A DNA stretch of 64,000 nucleotides, from positions 320,890 through 384,889 of the forward strand of contig CAKUVI010000001.1 in NCBI GenBank assembly GCA_934699095.1. Reading direction: 5' to 3'. Numbering within the stretch: position 1 is the first letter of the stretch; each line of letters begins with the position of its first letter. Made by a program: the position numbers and the translations under genes. Positions 37,697 to 45,143 of the stretch are shown one piece after another. This DNA is from an uncultured Bacteroidales bacterium (GTDB taxonomy: Bacteria > Bacteroidota > Bacteroidia > Bacteroidales > WCHB1-69). The notes beneath the pieces are model-generated. The model saw nothing but the letters and a program-made list of their open reading frames with translations, searched no databases and was not told the origin of the DNA.

Positions 37697-38749
37697 TCAC
37701 ACTAAACTTTCGTTAGTCTCACACGCCTTCATCCTGTTCTTTTGAACAGCTGCCCTACTTGTATTAGCGTAACAATAGACACACAAATGGTTACAAGTGT
37801 TGTACATACCAATGTCTTTGCTTATCATACATCCGCACACTTTTCGCTGCCCCTTGTCCTTCATCTTTTCGGGTGACAAGGCGGGTCGGCTAAAATCCAT
37901 ACCAAACAAAGAATCATTGTTGGGCAGTTCACCATAATTGAGATAATAGAGCAACTCCTTGTCGTCTGCCCAAAGGCGTTTCATCAGTTCACCGTCGATG
38001 CAGCGGTTGTGGGCGATGCCATACTTGTCGAGGTCGATGTTTTCACCGCAAGTGGCCAGTTCGATGCTCCATCCTTCCGACATCCAGCGGTCGCGGCATT
38101 TGGCGAGCCCATCGGCAATCTCGTTCATTTGCTCCAAGGTGAACTCCGCATCGGCAATGGTATCTTTTGAGAATTGGTTCGTCTCTTTCACAAGGTTATT
38201 CTGCACCTTGCGGTAGCCATTGATGTCGATAAAGCTGAAGACGAGTTTGTCCGTCAATCCTTTGAGTTTGTTGCCTAAGTTCCATATTTTTATGAGCAAG
38301 TTACGAGGCGTGAGTTGTGGCGTAACAATCAGCGGGTCGAAACGCCAGATGACACGTTCTTTGCCCACCATTTCCGTCAGTTCACGAAACGTCTGCACAC
38401 GTTGCTCCACGCTTGGCACGTTAGGTTCGAAATGCTCATTGTCGTAGTCGTTGAGGGTGAATTGGACGTAGTAATGAATGCCACGCTCATCCAATTCGTG
38501 CAACAATGGTAAAAGTGGTCGTGGATTCTTTGTCCAAAAGACTACCACTTTACAGTTTTGGAACGACACGTATGTTGGTTTCTGGTTGAACGGGTTGTAC
38601 CACACGCAATAGCCCGCCCGCAGTCTGTTAATGAACCATTTGGCATAGAACGCAGGAATGTCGGTACTCCTGCTCGCCGAAATGATGACGGGTGCGGTGG
38701 CTTCAACGGTCTGGCCTGATTGGGTGGTGATAAGGATTGTGTTCTTCAT
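37697..38749 (-). CDS. DUF1848 domain-containing protein (radical-SAM/TIM-barrel-like, C-terminal Cys cluster)
   Basis: SRSTDIPAFYAKWF near the N-terminus and the C-terminal CGCMISKDIGMYNTCNHLCVYCYAN cluster, recalled as DUF1848 hallmarks. ATG 38749 lies 4 nt after the upstream stop. Confidence 0.75.
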   Translation of the reverse strand: MKNTILITTQSGQTVEATAPVIISASRSTDIPAFYAKWFINRLRAGYCVWYNPFNQKPTYVSFQNCKVVVFWTKNPRPLLPLLHELDERGIHYYVQFTLNDYDNEHFEPNVPSVEQRVQTFRELTEMVGKERVIWRFDPLIVTPQLTPRNLLIKIWNLGNKLKGLTDKLVFSFIDINGYRKVQNNLVKETNQFSKDTIADAEFTLEQMNEIADGLAKCRDRWMSEGWSIELATCGENIDLDKYGIAHNRCIDGELMKRLWADDKELLYYLNYGELPNNDSLFGMDFSRPALSPEKMKDKGQRKVCGCMISKDIGMYNTCNHLCVYCYANTSRAAVQKNRMKACETNESLV

Positions 38750-38753
38750 AATA

Positions 38754-39524
38754 TTAGTACCTGACACTCTGCTTGTTTTTATCAATAACGTAGAATGCAA
38801 TTGTTTTATTAGTCATACTATTCTTAAATATGATGCCGTCACATTCGGCTGGTAGTTTTTTGGGAATGATAATTTCTTCATTAACATCGAGCGTTATTAA
38901 TATTGGTCTAATGATCTCAAGAAAATACCTTTTGTCTTGATCTGTTTTTTGTGAGAGATAAAAAACCTTGTCATGAGTGTTGTAATATGTTGAAAGCGGC
39001 TCTCCGTTTTCTGAGAGGGCGTAAGAAATATTCTTGTTAGGGAGCAAAACATAATTTGGATTCCTATCTTCTGTTTCTGAGAATTGACTCGACAATAGCA
39101 ATAATTTGGTTTTCGTTTTTACGCGCATACAATTTGGTTTACATTTCAGCAAGTCCATTAACACCTCTATTAGAAGGTTTGCCAATATTGGCTTACTCAT
39201 TTTTTCGTAAGAGTAGATTTTGTTGAGTTGCATTGAAATAAAATTAGCAAGTTCCGGATCCATTGTGCTATTAGAATGCGCCTTCCTCATTCCATTTATT
39301 GCTATTTCTGTGGGTGTTGGTCCGTTCCATTCATCTGTACGATGAGTCAAGTGCCATCCCCCACAAGCTTCACAAAAATACGCTCTTTGAGGTATAACAC
39401 CGGTTTCCTTTTTGATATCGTCGTTATTGAACTTCATAAACGTTAATGCTCTTTTCTCTGTGTCGAAAAGCATCTTTGTACGTCCGCAATCTCGGCAATA
39501 ATATCGATTTTTTGTCGGTTTCAT
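38754..39524 (-). CDS. zinc-ribbon protein, unknown function (cassette gene D)
   Basis: 256 aa with an N-terminal CxxC...CxxC (YYCRDCGR ... YFCEACGGWHLT). The rest is unrecognised. The ATG directly abuts the upstream TAA. AT-rich. Confidence 0.6.
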   Translation of the reverse strand: MKPTKNRYYCRDCGRTKMLFDTEKRALTFMKFNNDDIKKETGVIPQRAYFCEACGGWHLTHRTDEWNGPTPTEIAINGMRKAHSNSTMDPELANFISMQLNKIYSYEKMSKPILANLLIEVLMDLLKCKPNCMRVKTKTKLLLLSSQFSETEDRNPNYVLLPNKNISYALSENGEPLSTYYNTHDKVFYLSQKTDQDKRYFLEIIRPILITLDVNEEIIIPKKLPAECDGIIFKNSMTNKTIAFYVIDKNKQSVRY

Positions 39525-41264
39525 TTAATTATGGGATAAATAATTATTGAACAAAAATTCGTCCATCATTTTTGTTACATTTTCATTCTCGTATAAGACA
39601 CTCGTGAATGTCTTGGGTAAATCTGCAAAACCCTTGCAAGCACCCCAAAGCATAAACGCATAACATTTTTGAACGTATTTCTTATTGAGCATATAACGCT
39701 CTATTTGGTCGAAGCCCAATGGCTTGACGAAAAAAGACATGATTGACTGAAAGACTGGCATATTTTCAGGAATTGAAAACGTATCAGATTTATGCCTTTT
39801 GTACTGATAAAAACCTCTCAGCGTCTGCAAAATGCAATTACGTTTGACAGGGTCGATGTTGGGCATTGTTTTATATTTCTTTGCAGATGTTTCAATTGTA
39901 TGCAAAACAAACACATCAGAAACTACTTTTTCGTGTTCGCTCGACAATATACAACTCAGCAGGACATTGAAATATATGATTTCTTCATTGGTTGACTCTA
40001 CAATTTGGAGTCCGTTGTTTTTACAAACAATAAAACTCATATCTATATTCCCGCTGTCTGTTTCTGAGGAGACATCACGAATCAAATCATTAATAATGTC
40101 GCTGACACGGAAGAACAAAGCGGACAAAGTGGAATCATATTTGTATCTTCCTGTTGATGTATTCTTGATTTGTTCGTCGATGTCATCAAGTTCTGATTTC
40201 AAGATTTTGCAGTCGTTATTGAATTCCTCAAACTCCTTGATTTGGGCTTTGAGTTCCATCTTACGGTTGTATTCAGGAGTCCCCTTCCTGAAATACTCTC
40301 GCTGTTTTCCTTTCTTTATTCCATTGGCTTTTTCTTGTGCTTTTATAAAATCCAACTCGTCAAAATATTCCTTGATACGATTGTCTATCAATATTTTGTC
40401 AAGTTTCTTGACAATGGCAATCTTCTTGCTTTCAAGTTCTTTTCTGACTCTACCGTTTTCGCCAAAATTTTCTTTTTTTATTTCGTTGGCTTTCATCATT
40501 GCCAATTTGCTTATCTCAATGTACTGATGTTTCAATACATCAAAACTATTTGATGCCTCACTCGTTTTTAACAAATACAAATCCCTGCATTTTTCAATCA
40601 AAGGTAAAATTGTCAGGTTTTCAACATATTCATCATTTGTCATTATTTGAGTGTTTAAGGAAGCAAATGTGTTCTTCATATTCTTTAATTCGAAGAGAAG
40701 TTGTTGCCCCTTTTTATCGGATGTTGTCAGCTGTCCGCGTACATAACCTACTATTGCGCCCTTCAATTTGTTGAAACGGTTGTCGTTTTCAACATAGTTT
40801 GATTCTTCAAACGAAATAGTTTCGGAATCACGCTTTAGTTTCAACGAGTTTTTTTTTATGTTTTCTACAACAAAATCCTGCTCATATTTATCGACACATT
40901 TTACTTCGTAAAGGATTTTGGATTCCGATATGAGAGCGTTTTTCAATTCATTGGTGGCAAACCTGAATTGTACTAAACCGTTTTTGTAATATATTGTTTT
41001 ATCATACAAATAAGAGCCTGACTTTTTTGGGCCTGCTGTAAGACATTTCAAATCAAGTAATTGTTCGTCGATACAGATTGAATAGTCTCCACCCAAATCT
41101 TTATCCGTCAAAAGCAAATAGTTGGTTTTGTCATTTTTGTCGTTGATATAACGGCTCAAATTGTTGCCGAAATCCCTTTCCCCATAAAACGAATTTGGAG
41201 AAATGCTTTCAGTAACAAATGATTCCAAAAGATTCCAAGCACTGACGTTGATGTAGTATTTCAT
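39525..41264 (-). CDS. 579 aa protein of unknown function with a central coiled-coil-like region (cassette gene C)
   Basis: Long uninterrupted ORF in an AT-rich cassette. The central K/E-rich heptad-like stretch runs roughly from KANEIKKENFG to IDEQIKN. No catalytic motif recognised. Confidence 0.6.
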   Translation of the reverse strand: MKYYINVSAWNLLESFVTESISPNSFYGERDFGNNLSRYINDKNDKTNYLLLTDKDLGGDYSICIDEQLLDLKCLTAGPKKSGSYLYDKTIYYKNGLVQFRFATNELKNALISESKILYEVKCVDKYEQDFVVENIKKNSLKLKRDSETISFEESNYVENDNRFNKLKGAIVGYVRGQLTTSDKKGQQLLFELKNMKNTFASLNTQIMTNDEYVENLTILPLIEKCRDLYLLKTSEASNSFDVLKHQYIEISKLAMMKANEIKKENFGENGRVRKELESKKIAIVKKLDKILIDNRIKEYFDELDFIKAQEKANGIKKGKQREYFRKGTPEYNRKMELKAQIKEFEEFNNDCKILKSELDDIDEQIKNTSTGRYKYDSTLSALFFRVSDIINDLIRDVSSETDSGNIDMSFIVCKNNGLQIVESTNEEIIYFNVLLSCILSSEHEKVVSDVFVLHTIETSAKKYKTMPNIDPVKRNCILQTLRGFYQYKRHKSDTFSIPENMPVFQSIMSFFVKPLGFDQIERYMLNKKYVQKCYAFMLWGACKGFADLPKTFTSVLYENENVTKMMDEFLFNNYLSHN

Positions 41265-41276
41265 AACATGATGGTT

Positions 41277-42635
41277 TTATATTTTTTCGACATCTTTGTC
41301 ATCAACATTTTTCAGATATGATGTAAGGATACCCGAATACGTTATGTAAAGGCTGCGGGAAGCCCTCGTGCAGGCTACATAAAAAGCATTGACAGAGTCA
41401 ACTTTGCCATTTTCGGCAAAAGGAACGAATACGTTGTCGAACTCGGAACCCTTTGCCGCGTAATAATTGAGAATGCAAGGCAGGTCGTTATTGGAAAAAT
41501 CAAGCGTGTTGATAGTTCTGAAAGGGACTGTCTTACTCGTCCGATAGTGAACTTGCGTTTGGGTAATGCCATTTTGAAGGAAGAAATCCAAAACATACTT
41601 TATGTCTGCCTCATTCGGAACCAAAATGGCTACGTCATCCATATCTTCCGCTTTTATGATGTTTATTATCCATCTCAACTCGTCTTCTTTTGAGCGACAT
41701 TTTTTTATTATAGGTTTAGGATAGTTGGGGTAATCGCTGTCGCCGCCATCCTTGCGATTGTTGGTCATTAAATCATTTTTTTCGTTAGATACAATTCTTT
41801 GAGCAACCTTTGCGATGGATTTAGGCAAACGGTAATTGTAATATAATTCGAATGGCTTGAACCCCTCAAGTTGTTTTTCAATATCTTCCATTTTGCTGCC
41901 GGAAGAGATTAATTTTTGATTGCTATCACCAAGCAAGGTGAGGCTTTTGCCAGCTTGTTGAATAAGCCTATTTTTGTAAGCTAATACATTGAAATCTTGC
42001 GCTTCATCCACGATAATATAGTCGATTACTCCTTCGCAGGGCTTGTATAATATACCAGAGGGGACTAATCCGTAGTGAGGGTTTGATGTGCTAAATTCTT
42101 CGTCCATTGTTACTTCCTCGAACCACGAACACCGCCTGCCCCAAGCATAATAAAAAGCGTCTTCCACCCAATCTGCGAAATCAATGCCGTAGTAGCCTGC
42201 CCCATTATTTGAATGAACAACTGGTGAAACTTTGCGAAATTTACGAATAACATTGCTGTTCACTAAGTAAATAATGCTACTGTCGTCAACAACAATTCGT
42301 TCTCTATCATTTTCAAATTTAGTATGTTGCCTACAATACACATCACCGTTTAGGTCGAACCCCCTGTTACGCCAAGCCCAATCGTATGCAATGCGCTCGC
42401 TGTCAAGCCCAAGTTCTTTCATCCCGTATGCTACCATTCTTCTAAGGGCAACTGTTAGAATCAAAATCGCATACGAACCACCTGCATTTTTAGCCTTTGC
42501 AGCACGGTGAATAGCAAGGTTTGTCTTACCACTTCCCGCAACACCCTTGACTATGATGTTTTTGTCGATGCTCTCGACAATTACTTTGCGTTGGTAATCA
42601 TCAAGATTACTTATAAACCATTTTTCTAACCGCAT
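41277..42635 (-). CDS. compact UvrD/Rep-like SF1 helicase (cassette gene B)
   Basis: Q-motif-like DDYQRKVI, Walker A GVAGSGKT, motif II IIVDEAQD, motif III LLGDSNQKL, motif IV YNYRLPKSI, motif V AAKGSEFDNVFV and motif VI FYVACTRASRSLYI. Confidence 0.8.
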   Translation of the reverse strand: MRLEKWFISNLDDYQRKVIVESIDKNIIVKGVAGSGKTNLAIHRAAKAKNAGGSYAILILTVALRRMVAYGMKELGLDSERIAYDWAWRNRGFDLNGDVYCRQHTKFENDRERIVVDDSSIIYLVNSNVIRKFRKVSPVVHSNNGAGYYGIDFADWVEDAFYYAWGRRCSWFEEVTMDEEFSTSNPHYGLVPSGILYKPCEGVIDYIIVDEAQDFNVLAYKNRLIQQAGKSLTLLGDSNQKLISSGSKMEDIEKQLEGFKPFELYYNYRLPKSIAKVAQRIVSNEKNDLMTNNRKDGGDSDYPNYPKPIIKKCRSKEDELRWIINIIKAEDMDDVAILVPNEADIKYVLDFFLQNGITQTQVHYRTSKTVPFRTINTLDFSNNDLPCILNYYAAKGSEFDNVFVPFAENGKVDSVNAFYVACTRASRSLYITYSGILTSYLKNVDDKDVEKI

Positions 42636-43482
42636 TTATCACCTCCTTTTTTATTATTCTCCAAGCCACTTTGCTTACATCATTGTGCTTATGAGAATGG
42701 GTTATTGTATATATTTGGTTATATCCTTCATTTTTTGAGACCACTTTGCAATATGCTGCTTTCAATCCATTATCCATCATCATGGGTAGCCACTCTTGCG
42801 AAGTGTTGTTGTAAGTGGTTACGTCTTCGAGCAGCATTAAGCCATTGTCGGTAAGTTTGGGCATCAAAAATTTGGCAATATGTTCGTAAGCATTCTGCTT
42901 TTCAAATTGGTCTTTCGTCACAAACTCGCAAATGGCCTTGAAAGAGATTATTAGGTCAAACTGTTTGTCCAAAACCTTATTCAGTATGTGCAAATCGTAA
43001 AAATCGTCAATCATGATGGGAGCGGCATTGTTTTCCACTTCAAAACTGATATGAGATTGCGCCTTCTTCAATATTTTCTCATAAATCCTAAGTGCATGTT
43101 GATTCCCGTCTAAAGCCACTATCCGCACCTTTTTAACATGCGGCAAACACTCATCAATGACAGCAAGCAAGCCAATGATTTCACCTCCTGTACCACAACC
43201 GAAGTCGAACACGGAAAGAGCTGTTTGAGTGGCAAATTCGTCTGCATGGTGTTGGAAATATTCACTGAAAATGCAATATGCCTCAGCATAACTGCGAGGG
43301 AAATACGTACCAAGATAATTCAAGGTCTTGGCCTTGTCATCATCAATGTTCGTCATGTCGGAATAAGAAGGACTATATTCCGCCTTTTGTTCTCCAAAAA
43401 TGCAATCGTCAAGCCACTTTGGCAATTCCATTGTTCCCGAATAATCTCCACGGCGACCCCCGACTCCGTACAAATAAATCAT
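42607..43482 (-). CDS. class I SAM-dependent methyltransferase, substrate unknown (cassette gene A)
   Basis: Motif I VFDFGCGTGGE, motif II-like RIVALDGN, and DLIISF. No (D/N/S)PP(Y/F/W) or PCQ DNA-MTase motif seen. Overlaps gene B by 29 nt. An alternative start is MELPKW at 43431. Confidence 0.7.
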   Translation of the reverse strand: MIYLYGVGGRRGDYSGTMELPKWLDDCIFGEQKAEYSPSYSDMTNIDDDKAKTLNYLGTYFPRSYAEAYCIFSEYFQHHADEFATQTALSVFDFGCGTGGEIIGLLAVIDECLPHVKKVRIVALDGNQHALRIYEKILKKAQSHISFEVENNAAPIMIDDFYDLHILNKVLDKQFDLIISFKAICEFVTKDQFEKQNAYEHIAKFLMPKLTDNGLMLLEDVTTYNNTSQEWLPMMMDNGLKAAYCKVVSKNEGYNQIYTITHSHKHNDVSKVAWRIIKKEVINAVRKMVYK

Positions 43483-43500
43483 TCAATTTACCAAACACAA

Positions 43501-43540
43501 TAAAAAAAGCGCGGGAATCTGAACCATCGCTCATCCCGCG
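43501..43540 (-). terminator. intrinsic terminator-like hairpin 18 nt upstream of cassette gene A
   Basis: On the minus strand: CGCGGGA, a 17 nt loop, TCCCGCG, then C and TTTTTTTA. Confidence 0.55.
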
Positions 43541-43634
43541 TATCTGGCCTTCGCAATGCCTTCCTGCCGAGGATAAGCAATGCTGAAGCCCACGCCGTTG
43601 TATATGTAGAACGGATTTTGAATATTCCGCCTGT

Positions 43635-43656
43635 GAGACGCGCCATGGCGCGTCTC
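43635..43656. repeat. perfect 22 bp palindrome GAGACGCGCCATGGCGCGTCTC
   Basis: Self-complementary over all 22 nt, read directly. Lies inside the cassette leader. Confidence 0.9.
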
Positions 43657-43816
43657 TACGGATAATATACACAACCATGGACATTGACCATTGCCTTACC
43701 ACGCAGCAGGATATTGAATTTGCGAAGTTCGATACGCCGCAGATAAGACGTTGACTCAACGCCTTTTTTATATGTCTGCCTCCCTGCAAAAATTATCAGA
43801 ATGCAGAAAAGACCTG

Positions 43817-43824
43817 CAAAAATA
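43817..43824 (-). promoter_or_regulatory. -7 promoter box (TATTTTTG on the minus strand) at the head of the cassette leader
   Basis: Exact TAnnTTTG match. It is part of an 11 bp direct repeat CCTGCAAAAAT (43783-43793 and 43813-43823). Confidence 0.45.
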
Positions 43825-43901
43825 CAAAAAATATTATAAAATGCAAGATTTTTATTCCATCACTTTAATTACTTCCACTGCCCTGCTATTTAAAAAAAAT
43901 G

Positions 43902-43909
43902 TACCTTTG
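43902..43909 (+). promoter_or_regulatory. -7 promoter box (TACCTTTG)
   Basis: TAnnTTTG match 38 nt upstream of the ATG at 43947. Confidence 0.5.
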
Positions 43910-43946
43910 CCACACTTTTTTTAACACAAACTAACACAAAATAAAT

Positions 43947-45143
43947 ATGGAAAAATTTGATCCCGCAACCAACATCCAAGCGTTGGACAAAAAAGACGCC
44001 TACCGCGGCGTGAACCCTGCCATCTGCGACAGCGCAACCTTCATGTTCGAACAAGCTAAAACCATGACCGACACGTTCCATGGTGAGACTGAAGGCTATT
44101 ATCTATATTCAAGACATTGGAACCCAAGTACTTACGCTCTCTGTGAGTCTTTGGCTGCAATGGAAGGCACCGAGGCTGCCTGGGCTACCGGCTCTGGTAT
44201 GGCCGCAATCACCGTCGCTCTCCTCCACGAAGTGAAAGCCGGAGACCATATCCTCTCAAGCATGACAACCTACGGCGGTACCTTCGCTTTCCTCAACAAC
44301 TACATCAAAAAGTTCGGCGTTGAGGTTGACTTTGTGAACATGCAAGACCTTGAGGCTGTTAAAAAGGCTATCAAACCTAACACCAAGGTTCTCTATACCG
44401 AGACAATGAACAACCCGCTCCTGCGCATCGCCAACCTTCCTGAACTGTCGAAGATTGCCCACGCACACGGTGCCAAACTCTTGGTTGACAACACCTTCAC
44501 ACCTATGATTTTCTCTCCTTACCGCCTCGGCGCTGATGTGGTTATCTATAGTATGACCAAATACGTGAACGGCATGAACGACTGCGTTGCAGGTGCTATC
44601 TGCGGTACTGCCGAGTATATCAACTCACTCATCGACGTGAACAACGGAACAGCTATGCTTCTCGGTCCGGTGCTCGACCCAATGCGCTCTTCAAGCATCC
44701 AGAAAAACCTCCATACACTCCATATCCGCATGAAACAACACAGCGCTAATGCAATGTATCTTGCAAAACGTTTCGAAGAGACCGGCTTTAAGTACAACTA
44801 CCCTGGGCTCCCAGAACATCCAGACTATGAGCTCTTTAAGTCGATGATGAACGAGGAATACGGTTTCGGCGGCATGATTTCAATCGACATGGGCACTGCT
44901 GCAAAGGCAAGCGCAATCATGGAGAAAATGCAAGAACTCGGCGTTGGTTACCTCGCTGTAAGCCTTGGCTATTTCAAGACTCTGTTCAGCAACTCCGGAA
45001 AATCAACCTCTTCAGAAGTTCCTGAGGATATCCAGAGAGAGATGGGCATGAGCGAAGGCCTGATCCGCTTCTCTGTTGGTCTCGATAACGATCCTGAACG
45101 CACATTCCAGCTTATCAAACAGGCTATCGAAGCAACAAAATAA
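43947..45143 (+). CDS. Cys/Met-metabolism PLP-dependent enzyme (methionine gamma-lyase/cystathionine gamma-synthase family)
   Basis: YSRHWNPST, GSGMAAI and the PLP-lysine context SMTKYVNG. Confidence 0.8.
   Translation: MEKFDPATNIQALDKKDAYRGVNPAICDSATFMFEQAKTMTDTFHGETEGYYLYSRHWNPSTYALCESLAAMEGTEAAWATGSGMAAITVALLHEVKAGDHILSSMTTYGGTFAFLNNYIKKFGVEVDFVNMQDLEAVKKAIKPNTKVLYTETMNNPLLRIANLPELSKIAHAHGAKLLVDNTFTPMIFSPYRLGADVVIYSMTKYVNGMNDCVAGAICGTAEYINSLIDVNNGTAMLLGPVLDPMRSSSIQKNLHTLHIRMKQHSANAMYLAKRFEETGFKYNYPGLPEHPDYELFKSMMNEEYGFGGMISIDMGTAAKASAIMEKMQELGVGYLAVSLGYFKTLFSNSGKSTSSEVPEDIQREMGMSEGLIRFSVGLDNDPERTFQLIKQAIEATK

Follow-up and report, generated by a model that had tools for sequence, protein, structure and literature searches.

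Between two divergent genes of an uncultured Bacteroidales bacterium lies a gap of 464 bp (43483-43946 of the window, the whole stretch of 64,000 nt from contig CAKUVI010000001.1 analysed here), and the question it raises is what the RNA transcribed from its minus strand does. A sequence-only reading of the window had flagged a structured leader of about 330 nt with an intrinsic terminator in this gap. The leader stands before a minus-strand cassette, the first gene of which (gene A) encodes a class-I methyltransferase-like protein, and it had been taken for either an attenuator or an independent RNA of the cassette system. We find that the leader is a widespread RNA family of rumen and gut Bacteroidales, absent from Rfam and of a known mechanistic kind. 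The role we favour, with a probability of about 0.55, is that of a cis-acting transcription attenuator of the methyltransferase-helicase-DUF1848 operon, belonging to a family of rod-shaped leaders of Bacteroidales.

The minus-strand RNA of 43483-43810 has a minimum free energy (MFE) of -131.1 kcal/mol, compared with -93.1 ± 5.2 kcal/mol for dinucleotide shuffles (z = -7.36; none of 100 shuffles folded as well). The predicted fold is a single rod of ~290 nt, extending from about 43780 to 43490 and comprising 117 pairs. Since 18 of these pairs are G-U and the plus strand folds to only -97.9 kcal/mol, the structure is specific to the minus-strand RNA. The same strand folded better in all 48 close and all seven distant copies tested. 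The features that the sequence-only reading had listed one by one are all found where it had placed them: an exact -7 promoter box at 43817-43824, an 11-bp element (CCTGCAAAAAT) duplicated at 43783-43793 and 43813-43823, a small hairpin, a perfect 22-bp palindrome at 43635-43656, and a stem followed by seven U residues at 43501-43540. The hairpins among them are not separate pieces, being parts of the one long rod, and the small hairpin, previously delimited as 43749-43769, is a 9-bp hairpin of 43745-43765 (-8.7 kcal/mol).

Full-length homologues were found by DNA search in about 50 of the 152 species genomes of the same family, where they are spread over eight genera, share 68-83% identity and often occur in several copies per genome; many of them lie at contig ends. 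The number of genomes with any match was 77, which includes those matching only the palindrome in the tip of the rod, a repetitive extragenic palindromic (REP)-like sequence. A pattern scan of one genome per species throughout bacteria and archaea gave 59 loci, all in metagenome-assembled genomes (MAGs) of uncultured Bacteroidales from the gut of sheep, goat, yak, buffalo, reindeer, deer and horse, and a single MAG may have as many as five copies. In a sample of 400 genomes of the order the element was detected in five further families. The genome under study has exactly one copy (nhmmer E = 1.4e-85; next match E = 0.018). The sequence-only reading had pointed to Rfam and to covariation among homologous leaders as the places to look. 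Rfam 15 (4227 families) gave no match, either here or with eight full-length homologues: the top-scoring hits to the present copy had E = 2.4 and, at 18 bits against a cut-off of 56, E = 9, and the sole match up to E = 0.1 at the homologue loci falls outside the element. No leader of this sort was found described in the literature searched.

Covariation, on the other hand, is extensive. In an alignment of 48 distinct full-length copies (alignment A1), RNAalifold predicts an unbranched rod with 60 consensus pairs; compensatory changes occur in 14 of them, with up to four pair types per pair. A standard pair occupies 99.3% of the cells in the named structure and 35-50% when the 3' partners are shifted by 1-3 columns. 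The same comparison gives 217 versus 10-17 cells with a change on either side of the pair at once, and a covariation score of 0.244 versus 0.03-0.05. None of 500 column shuffles reached the observed covariation values. The compensatory changes are held by helices 3 to 5. In the basal helices 1 and 2 every one-sided change keeps the rod pairing, and 99.5-99.7% of the cells are paired.

It is at the base of the rod that a switch would operate. The terminator hairpin is formed there by two segments, region 2 and region 3, and is followed immediately by the U7 tract (Table 1); the hairpin and U-tract of a putative intrinsic terminator occupy 43502-43540, in agreement with the sequence-only reading, and a run of at least five U is found in most of the 48 aligned copies. 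A simple terminator scan missed the hairpin at 43510-43540, presumably since its outer stem encloses more than the 3-8 nt loop that the scan allows. In the rod state region 2 is paired with region 1b (CGUCUUAUCUGCGGC, 43736-43750) and region 3 with region 1a (GGCGUUGAGUC), the two parts of a near-invariant 28-mer in the 5' arm. Because both need region 2, the rod base and the 12-bp terminator hairpin are mutually exclusive. The 28-mer likewise has two options, either the local 9-bp hairpin of 43745-43765 or the 5' strand of the rod base, where it would act as antiterminator. The linker that precedes it also seems to take part in both states, its A-tract pairing with the U-tract in the folded rod, and GCAGA (43775-43779) being able to pair with UCUGC (43739-43743) in constrained folds of the terminator state. 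One half of the terminator stem can thus be taken up by another pairing, and both pairings are conserved, with a significance that is overstated by the relatedness of the sequences.

The two states are nearly equal in energy. According to constrained folding, the difference between rod and terminator states is -2.9 ± 4.3 kcal/mol over 55 copies, against totals of -85 to -150 kcal/mol, and -2.3 kcal/mol in the copy studied here. For the RNA just before region 3 emerges, 26 of 44 copies, this one included, have an MFE structure in which region 1b is bound to upstream sequence and region 2 is unpaired. Duplex energies of cognate and non-cognate partners were compared using one representative per distinct word pair. 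Cognate duplexes were the more stable both for 1b:2 (-14.0 versus -11.7 kcal/mol) and for 2:3 (-14.9 versus -13.6 kcal/mol), and in neither case was any of 5000 permutations as good. In distant copies from other families the terminator stem GCGGGA:UCCCGC becomes CGUGGG:CCCACG, GUGGGA:UCCCAC or ACGGG:CCCGU, and the rod partner changes in step, as with ACGGUC x GACCGU in copy L098.

The promoter proposed in the sequence-only reading is an exact match to the Bacteroidetes-type TAnnTTTG -7 box. Because such a box stands ~65-70 nt 5' of the 28-mer in nearly all 48 aligned homologues, it may be regarded as a conserved promoter, from which transcription would start at about 43811-43814, ~6 nt past the box. 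The RNA would then begin with a 5' hairpin, P1, which holds the second copy of the 11-bp repeat together with a 7-of-8 box, AATTTTTG (43787-43794). A hairpin occurs at the P1 position in each copy, as seen in the alignment, its sequence being wholly different between subfamilies. The further claim that no second promoter box precedes the gene holds for exact boxes in every copy: a motif search for TAnnTTTG between the U-tract and the next start codon was negative in all 48. A 7-of-8 near-match, TTTATTTG, does lie on the minus strand at 43471-43478, between the U-tract and gene A, and is also present in the copy of genome G054.

Conservation extends past the U-tract, where the conserved RNA includes a short AUGUG directly adjoining it and, ~40 nt further, a hairpin (region 4) with a loop GGGARUC and a covarying stem that includes G-U pairs, present in ~40 of the 48 copies. 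In our copy the loop GGGGGUC is complementary to GAUUCCC (43513-43519) of region 3. The 3:4 pairing between this loop and GAUUCCC scored -10.1 kcal/mol for cognate versus -8.2 kcal/mol for non-cognate partners (0 of 5000 permutations as good), and it has compensatory variants: GUUUCCC:GGGAAAC, UCUCCC:GGGAGA and GGCUCC:GGAGCC. An extension of the rod beyond the U-tract through CAUAU and AUGUG was considered and abandoned, the two motifs being complementary and conserved but without cognate advantage (435 of 1000 permutations as good). A promoter of the extracytoplasmic function (ECF) type within the region-4 hairpin was ruled out by the G-U pairs, the stem covariation and the covariation of the loop with region 3.

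These observations suggest the following course of events. Transcription would start ~6 nt past the -7 box, and the RNA would form the 5' hairpin and then the ~290 nt rod predicted by folding and covariation. The last 30 nt of the 3' arm could either close the rod base with the 28-mer (43736-43763) or fold on themselves into the 12-bp hairpin that with U7 makes up the terminator, the two states being nearly isoenergetic and both pairings covarying. Since the nascent 28-mer is already held in its own 9-bp hairpin, termination is the probable default and would yield a stable RNA of ~310 nt. Opening of that hairpin, or sufficient time for the rod to zip, would let the polymerase run on; candidates for the trigger are a protein, an RNA, or a slow or paused RNA polymerase. 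The read-through transcript would carry the further hairpin, with its loop able to pair with the 3' half of the terminator, and then the start codon at 43431. That the 28-mer is so highly conserved hints at a trans-acting partner. Conditional termination with read-through, the favoured option of the sequence-only reading, is thus also the best reading of a conserved promoter, a strong conserved terminator, the lack of an exact promoter box between terminator and gene in any copy, and a conserved structure beyond the U-tract.

Table 1 Features of the leader and its surroundings, in window coordinates
Feature	Position	Strand	Remarks
Cys/Met-metabolism pyridoxal-phosphate (PLP) enzyme gene	43947-45143	plus	flanks the leader gap
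Bacteroidetes-type -7 promoter box TATTTTTG	43817-43824	minus	exact TAnnTTTG
5' hairpin P1 (GUCUUUUCUGCA / UGCAGGGAGGC)	43778-43813	minus	-10.6 kcal/mol; at the probable 5' end
Linker AGACAUAUAAAAAA	43764-43777	minus	conserved in alignment A1; constrained folds
Near-invariant 28-mer GGCGUUGAGUCAACGUCUUAUCUGCGGC (regions 1a and 1b)	43736-43763	minus	25 of 28 positions invariant in 48 copies
Rod body, helices 3-7	43541-43735	minus	RNAalifold consensus; internal loop of ~13 x 9 nt, variable tip
Rod tip, 22-bp palindrome GAGACGCGCCATGGCGCGTCTC	43635-43656	minus	REP-like; genome-wide repeat in the variable tip
Second small hairpin close to the tip (GGCGGA...UCCGUU)	43610-43631	minus	MFE fold; in many, not all, copies
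Terminator hairpin, region 2 CGCGGGAUGAGC (43529-43540) x region 3 GUUCAGAUUCCCGCG (43510-43524)	43510-43540	minus	12 bp, -17.4 kcal/mol
U7 tract	43502-43508	minus	immediately past the hairpin; pairs with the A-tract in the rod state
Post-terminator hairpin, region 4	43449-43470	minus	loop core GGGGGUC (43455-43461)
Probable start codon of gene A (MELPKWLDD...)	43429-43431	minus	70 nt past the U-tract; in frame with 43482
Cassette: methyltransferase-like gene A, UvrD/GajB-like helicase, two proteins without family hits, DUF1848 protein	37697-43482	minus	

Several points weigh against attenuation as described. The 1a:3 duplex, the second half of the rod base, is marginal (cognate -7.8 versus non-cognate -7.4 kcal/mol; 254 of 5000 permutations as good), and all the permutation tests were run on related sequences, so that their significance is overstated. 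The basal helices are near-invariant in the family and their covariation depends on ~15 distant copies. The 5' hairpin is simpler here and in three other copies than in most family members. The TTTATTTG box, maybe a weak internal promoter, may give terminator-independent expression in this copy, and the 3:4 pairing after the terminator has no role in the switch model. We infer the start site, termination at U7 and read-through from the sequence and its predicted folds, and no aptamer-like junction is evident.

The alternative that survives best is a constitutive module of the 5' untranslated region (UTR), in which the rod and the 5' hairpin would serve as stabiliser, processing site (e.g. for RNase III) and two-way insulator for acquired operons, the terminator being merely leaky and nothing being sensed. 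The hairpin at the extreme 5' end and the long near-duplex body are what such a module would look like, the A-tract plus hairpin would make a terminator on the opposite strand too (plus strand 43749-43761, then a T-run), no aptamer-like junction is evident, and the leader goes with AT-rich accessory genes of many kinds. A passive stabiliser, however, needs neither of the two exclusive pairings of region 2, which both covary and are balanced within ~3 kcal/mol in 55 copies, and the conservation of the 28-mer is far above the need of a mere stem strand. We consider a constitutive module unlikely.

The genes that follow the leader bear on the other explanations. At least 40 of the 48 copies have a same-strand gene after the leader, and its start codon is usually 56-112 nt from the U-tract; the few copies without a nearby downstream gene are L014, L016 and L028. 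The operons behind the leader are mutually unrelated. Besides the methyltransferase cassette, which follows it in this genome, in G054 and in the MAG of L071, they include complete TerY-P triads (protein kinase, vWA plus TerY_C, PP2C phosphatase) directly behind the leader in L034, L043, L045 and L069. In L064, L067 and L073 the leader precedes a sigma/anti-sigma-like pair and, after it, a protein with a caspase domain (Peptidase_C14), this domain being confirmed by Pfam and the sigma and anti-sigma labels resting on sequence appearance only. A 1178-aa protein resembling a PLD/SNF2-type helicase and a J-domain-like protein were recognized by eye. Cargo proteins of type IX secretion with small lipoproteins were also found, and a recurrent family of 226-aa secreted proteins is preceded by the leader in nine copies.

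These contexts speak on the possibility that the leader is an independent small RNA gene, the ~310 nt product of which would end at U7 and act in trans, e.g. by binding a protein as 6S RNA or CsrB does, with the downstream operon expressed separately or incidentally. The conserved promoter of its own and the strong terminator would suit such a gene, as would the multiple copies in many genomes, the three copies without a nearby downstream gene, and the central internal loop of ~13 x 9 nt, which recalls 6S RNA. The stand-alone RNA of ~300 nt that the sequence-only reading had offered keeps some probability, since termination would leave a stable RNA of ~310 nt. It is weakened by the conservation and covarying structure ~60 nt beyond the U-tract, to which are added the same-strand gene that at least 40 of 48 copies have at a fixed distance, the lack of an exact promoter box before the next gene in all 48, and the failure to match 6S or any other Rfam family. 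An independent small RNA is somewhat less probable still than the constitutive module. The leader and 6S RNA are both rod-like, each having its own promoter and terminator, a stem that closes the rod, a large internal loop at the centre and a terminal part; but the leader measures ~310 nt versus ~185 nt, occurs in up to five copies per MAG, stands upstream of a same-strand gene with structure conserved past the terminator and lacks an Rfam 6S match, so that it was not assigned to that family.

Nor does the RNA appear to be a part of the cassette system, as the sequence-only reading had suggested. Its dozens of other copies stand before unrelated operons. The methyltransferase gene is found in only 3 of the 152 family genomes, with the rod leader in G054 and a different leader in G090, the latter being one of three genomes besides the present one that were found to have the gene. 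From the unrelated operons and the different leader of G090 we conclude that the RNA is a portable leader and not a cassette component. The cassette proteins have PADLOC matches to families associated with defence reverse transcriptases (RTasDUF1848, 3e-39; RTasHel; and the N-terminal part of RT_UG35), and for this reason a template RNA of the retron or defence-associated reverse transcriptase (DRT) type was considered. The candidate was rejected, since the cassette showed no detectable reverse transcriptase domain and the operons behind the RNA are unrelated to each other; the leader RNA in the window is thus not a system-specific non-coding RNA of that sort. Guide or bridge RNAs of IscB, TnpB or IS110 were also dismissed, as none of the copies has genes of these kinds beside it. 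Two cassette proteins, of 579 and 256 aa, have no match in Pfam, NCBIfam or PADLOC.

A selfish repeat, that is a palindromic mobile element resembling a miniature inverted-repeat transposable element (MITE) or an enterobacterial repetitive intergenic consensus (ERIC) sequence, which landed upstream of the cassette and has no function at the RNA level, is very unlikely. The leader does share with ERIC, REP and MITE elements its multi-copy, intergenic nature and an imperfect palindrome over its whole length that is transcribed into a hairpin; several copies lie at contig ends and a true REP-like palindrome sits in the tip. Unlike them it has a conserved promoter, at a single end, and keeps its orientation and its distance to the gene that follows; it also shows strand-specific G-U pairs in every copy tested, compensatory changes in 14 pairs and conservation across families at 68-83% identity. 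Its association with particular gene families is stable from genome to genome, as in the nine copies before the 226-aa protein family. No terminal inverted repeats or target duplications were noticed, although no search was aimed at them and neither target duplications nor empty sites were looked for systematically.

Least credible of all is that the region encodes a small protein, be it one of the open reading frames (ORFs) of 126, 52 and 47 aa that exist mechanically or an N-terminal extension of gene A from the in-frame ATG 43482, given the frame-breaking indels throughout the family alignment, substitutions that track the RNA pairing, the lack of a Pfam match for the 126-aa ORF, and an extension of 17 codons that overlaps the region-4 hairpin. 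On these indels, the RNA-type compensatory changes and the missing Pfam match, and so by inference only, the statement of the sequence-only reading that there is no credible ORF can be upheld. The same indels rule out a leader peptide.

The start of gene A itself needs revision. The methyltransferase homologue in L071 begins with MQLPHWLD at the point equivalent to ATG 43431 and that in G090 with MTLPTWLD, and the 17 codons between ATG 43482 and ATG 43431 are filled by the conserved RNA hairpin; on these grounds gene A probably starts at ATG 43431 and not at ATG 43482, and its annotated start in the window is probably wrong. The distance of 18 nt between terminator and gene that the sequence-only reading had emphasized is correctly counted from the end of the U-tract to ATG 43482, but it is an artefact of taking the first in-frame ATG as the start.

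Considered as a transcription attenuator, the leader resembles classical trp-type attenuators (1:2 / 2:3 / 3:4) and the expression platforms of riboswitches and T-boxes in being a promoter-proximal, non-coding structured leader with an intrinsic terminator just before the gene. As in the classical attenuators, region 2 has two exclusive conserved partners and the pairings form an overlapping chain, 1b:2, 2:3 and 3:4. In the trp type the arrangement is different: here the U-tract comes after region 3, so that 2:3 is the terminator and 3:4 lies beyond it. The role of antiterminator would fall to the base of a ~110-bp rod, and the genes concerned are unrelated accessory operons and not those of one pathway. 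Unlike attenuators, T-boxes and riboswitches, the rod leader has no leader peptide, no tRNA- or ligand-binding junction and no match in Rfam. A riboswitch, one of the possibilities raised in the sequence-only reading, finds no support in the consensus fold, which is an unbranched rod lacking a junction or pseudoknot of a known class.

Processive-antitermination or factor-dependent leaders are known from LoaP, from the 5' UTRs of Bacteroides capsule loci that depend on UpxY (a NusG paralogue), and from EAR and HK022 put. The rod leader shares with them the long 5' leader with an internal terminator before accessory clusters, and its conserved block could be a factor site. It differs from leaders of the LoaP and UpxY type in having no NusG paralogue or other factor gene linked to it, in the variety of its contexts and in its single copy in this genome. 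Candidate structured RNAs of Bacteroidales and of rumen metagenomes, such as those held in Rfam, have been described by Weinberg et al. (2010, PMC2864571; 2017, PMC5737381). They share with the rod leader the habitat and the type of evidence, namely intergenic covariation; unlike the candidates of these authors held in Rfam (PMC2864571, PMC5737381), the rod leader matches no Rfam 15 family.

If attenuation by the rod leader is true, one portable RNA module gates the entry of RNA polymerase into many horizontally acquired operons of rumen and gut Bacteroidales, among them anti-phage-like systems, TerY-P triads, caspase-linked sigma/anti-sigma units and secreted proteins. It would then represent a new orphan class of regulatory RNA, in which the base of a 110-bp rod doubles as antiterminator and a further pairing is formed beyond the terminator. 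RNA-based regulation is poorly known in Bacteroidales, which are not known to possess Hfq or ProQ and make little use of Shine-Dalgarno sequences. In practical terms, finding the leader points to accessory or defence cargo behind it, and those who engineer Bacteroides could use the module to switch expression. A bolder and doubtful extension, to which we give little credence, is that the rod leader is a shared master switch, through which one global cue would co-induce unrelated defence-like and surface-protein operons of the Bacteroidales accessory genome, with the 3:4 pairing as a second, post-transcriptional checkpoint. Such a cue might lie in how fast RNA polymerase moves or how it is modified, in a dedicated RNA-binding factor for the 28-mer, or in a change brought about by phage infection or envelope stress.

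Some further observations concern the surroundings of the leader. The genome is a Bacteroidales assembly of 2.4 Mb with 45.5% G+C; the leader has 47% and the cassette 34-42%. The palindrome of the rod tip, (GTA)GAGACGCGCCATGGCGCGTCTC(TAC), recurs at 23 sites in the genome with up to 3 mismatches, versus none for a reversed control, and at 28 sites with up to 4. Examples are G000:C8:4385-5106, with three sites within 0.7 kb on C8, C5:173010 and C4:106740, and some sites have longer common flanks (..ttgcctcc.. / ..ttcccatt..). The tip of the rod varies within the family, other copies (e.g. L019, L028 and L031) having other REP-like palindromes or none.

The methyltransferase homologue of G090, in another genus (L112, G090:C1:172000-175794), is preceded by a leader of ~240 nt that may belong to a sister leader family. 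This leader has a TAnnTTTG box of its own and, ~50 nt before the ATG, a hairpin resembling a terminator (GGCGAACGCC, then U7). On the plus strand of the window, the complement of the 5' hairpin and A-tract at 43749-43770 looks terminator-like (CGTTGACTCAACG followed by CCTTTTTTAT), and the leader could also halt antisense transcription leaving the cassette. An exact -7 box, TACCTTTG, lies on the plus strand at 43902-43909, 37 nt 5' of the ATG (43947) of the divergent PLP-enzyme gene, and the gap therefore has two back-to-back promoters.

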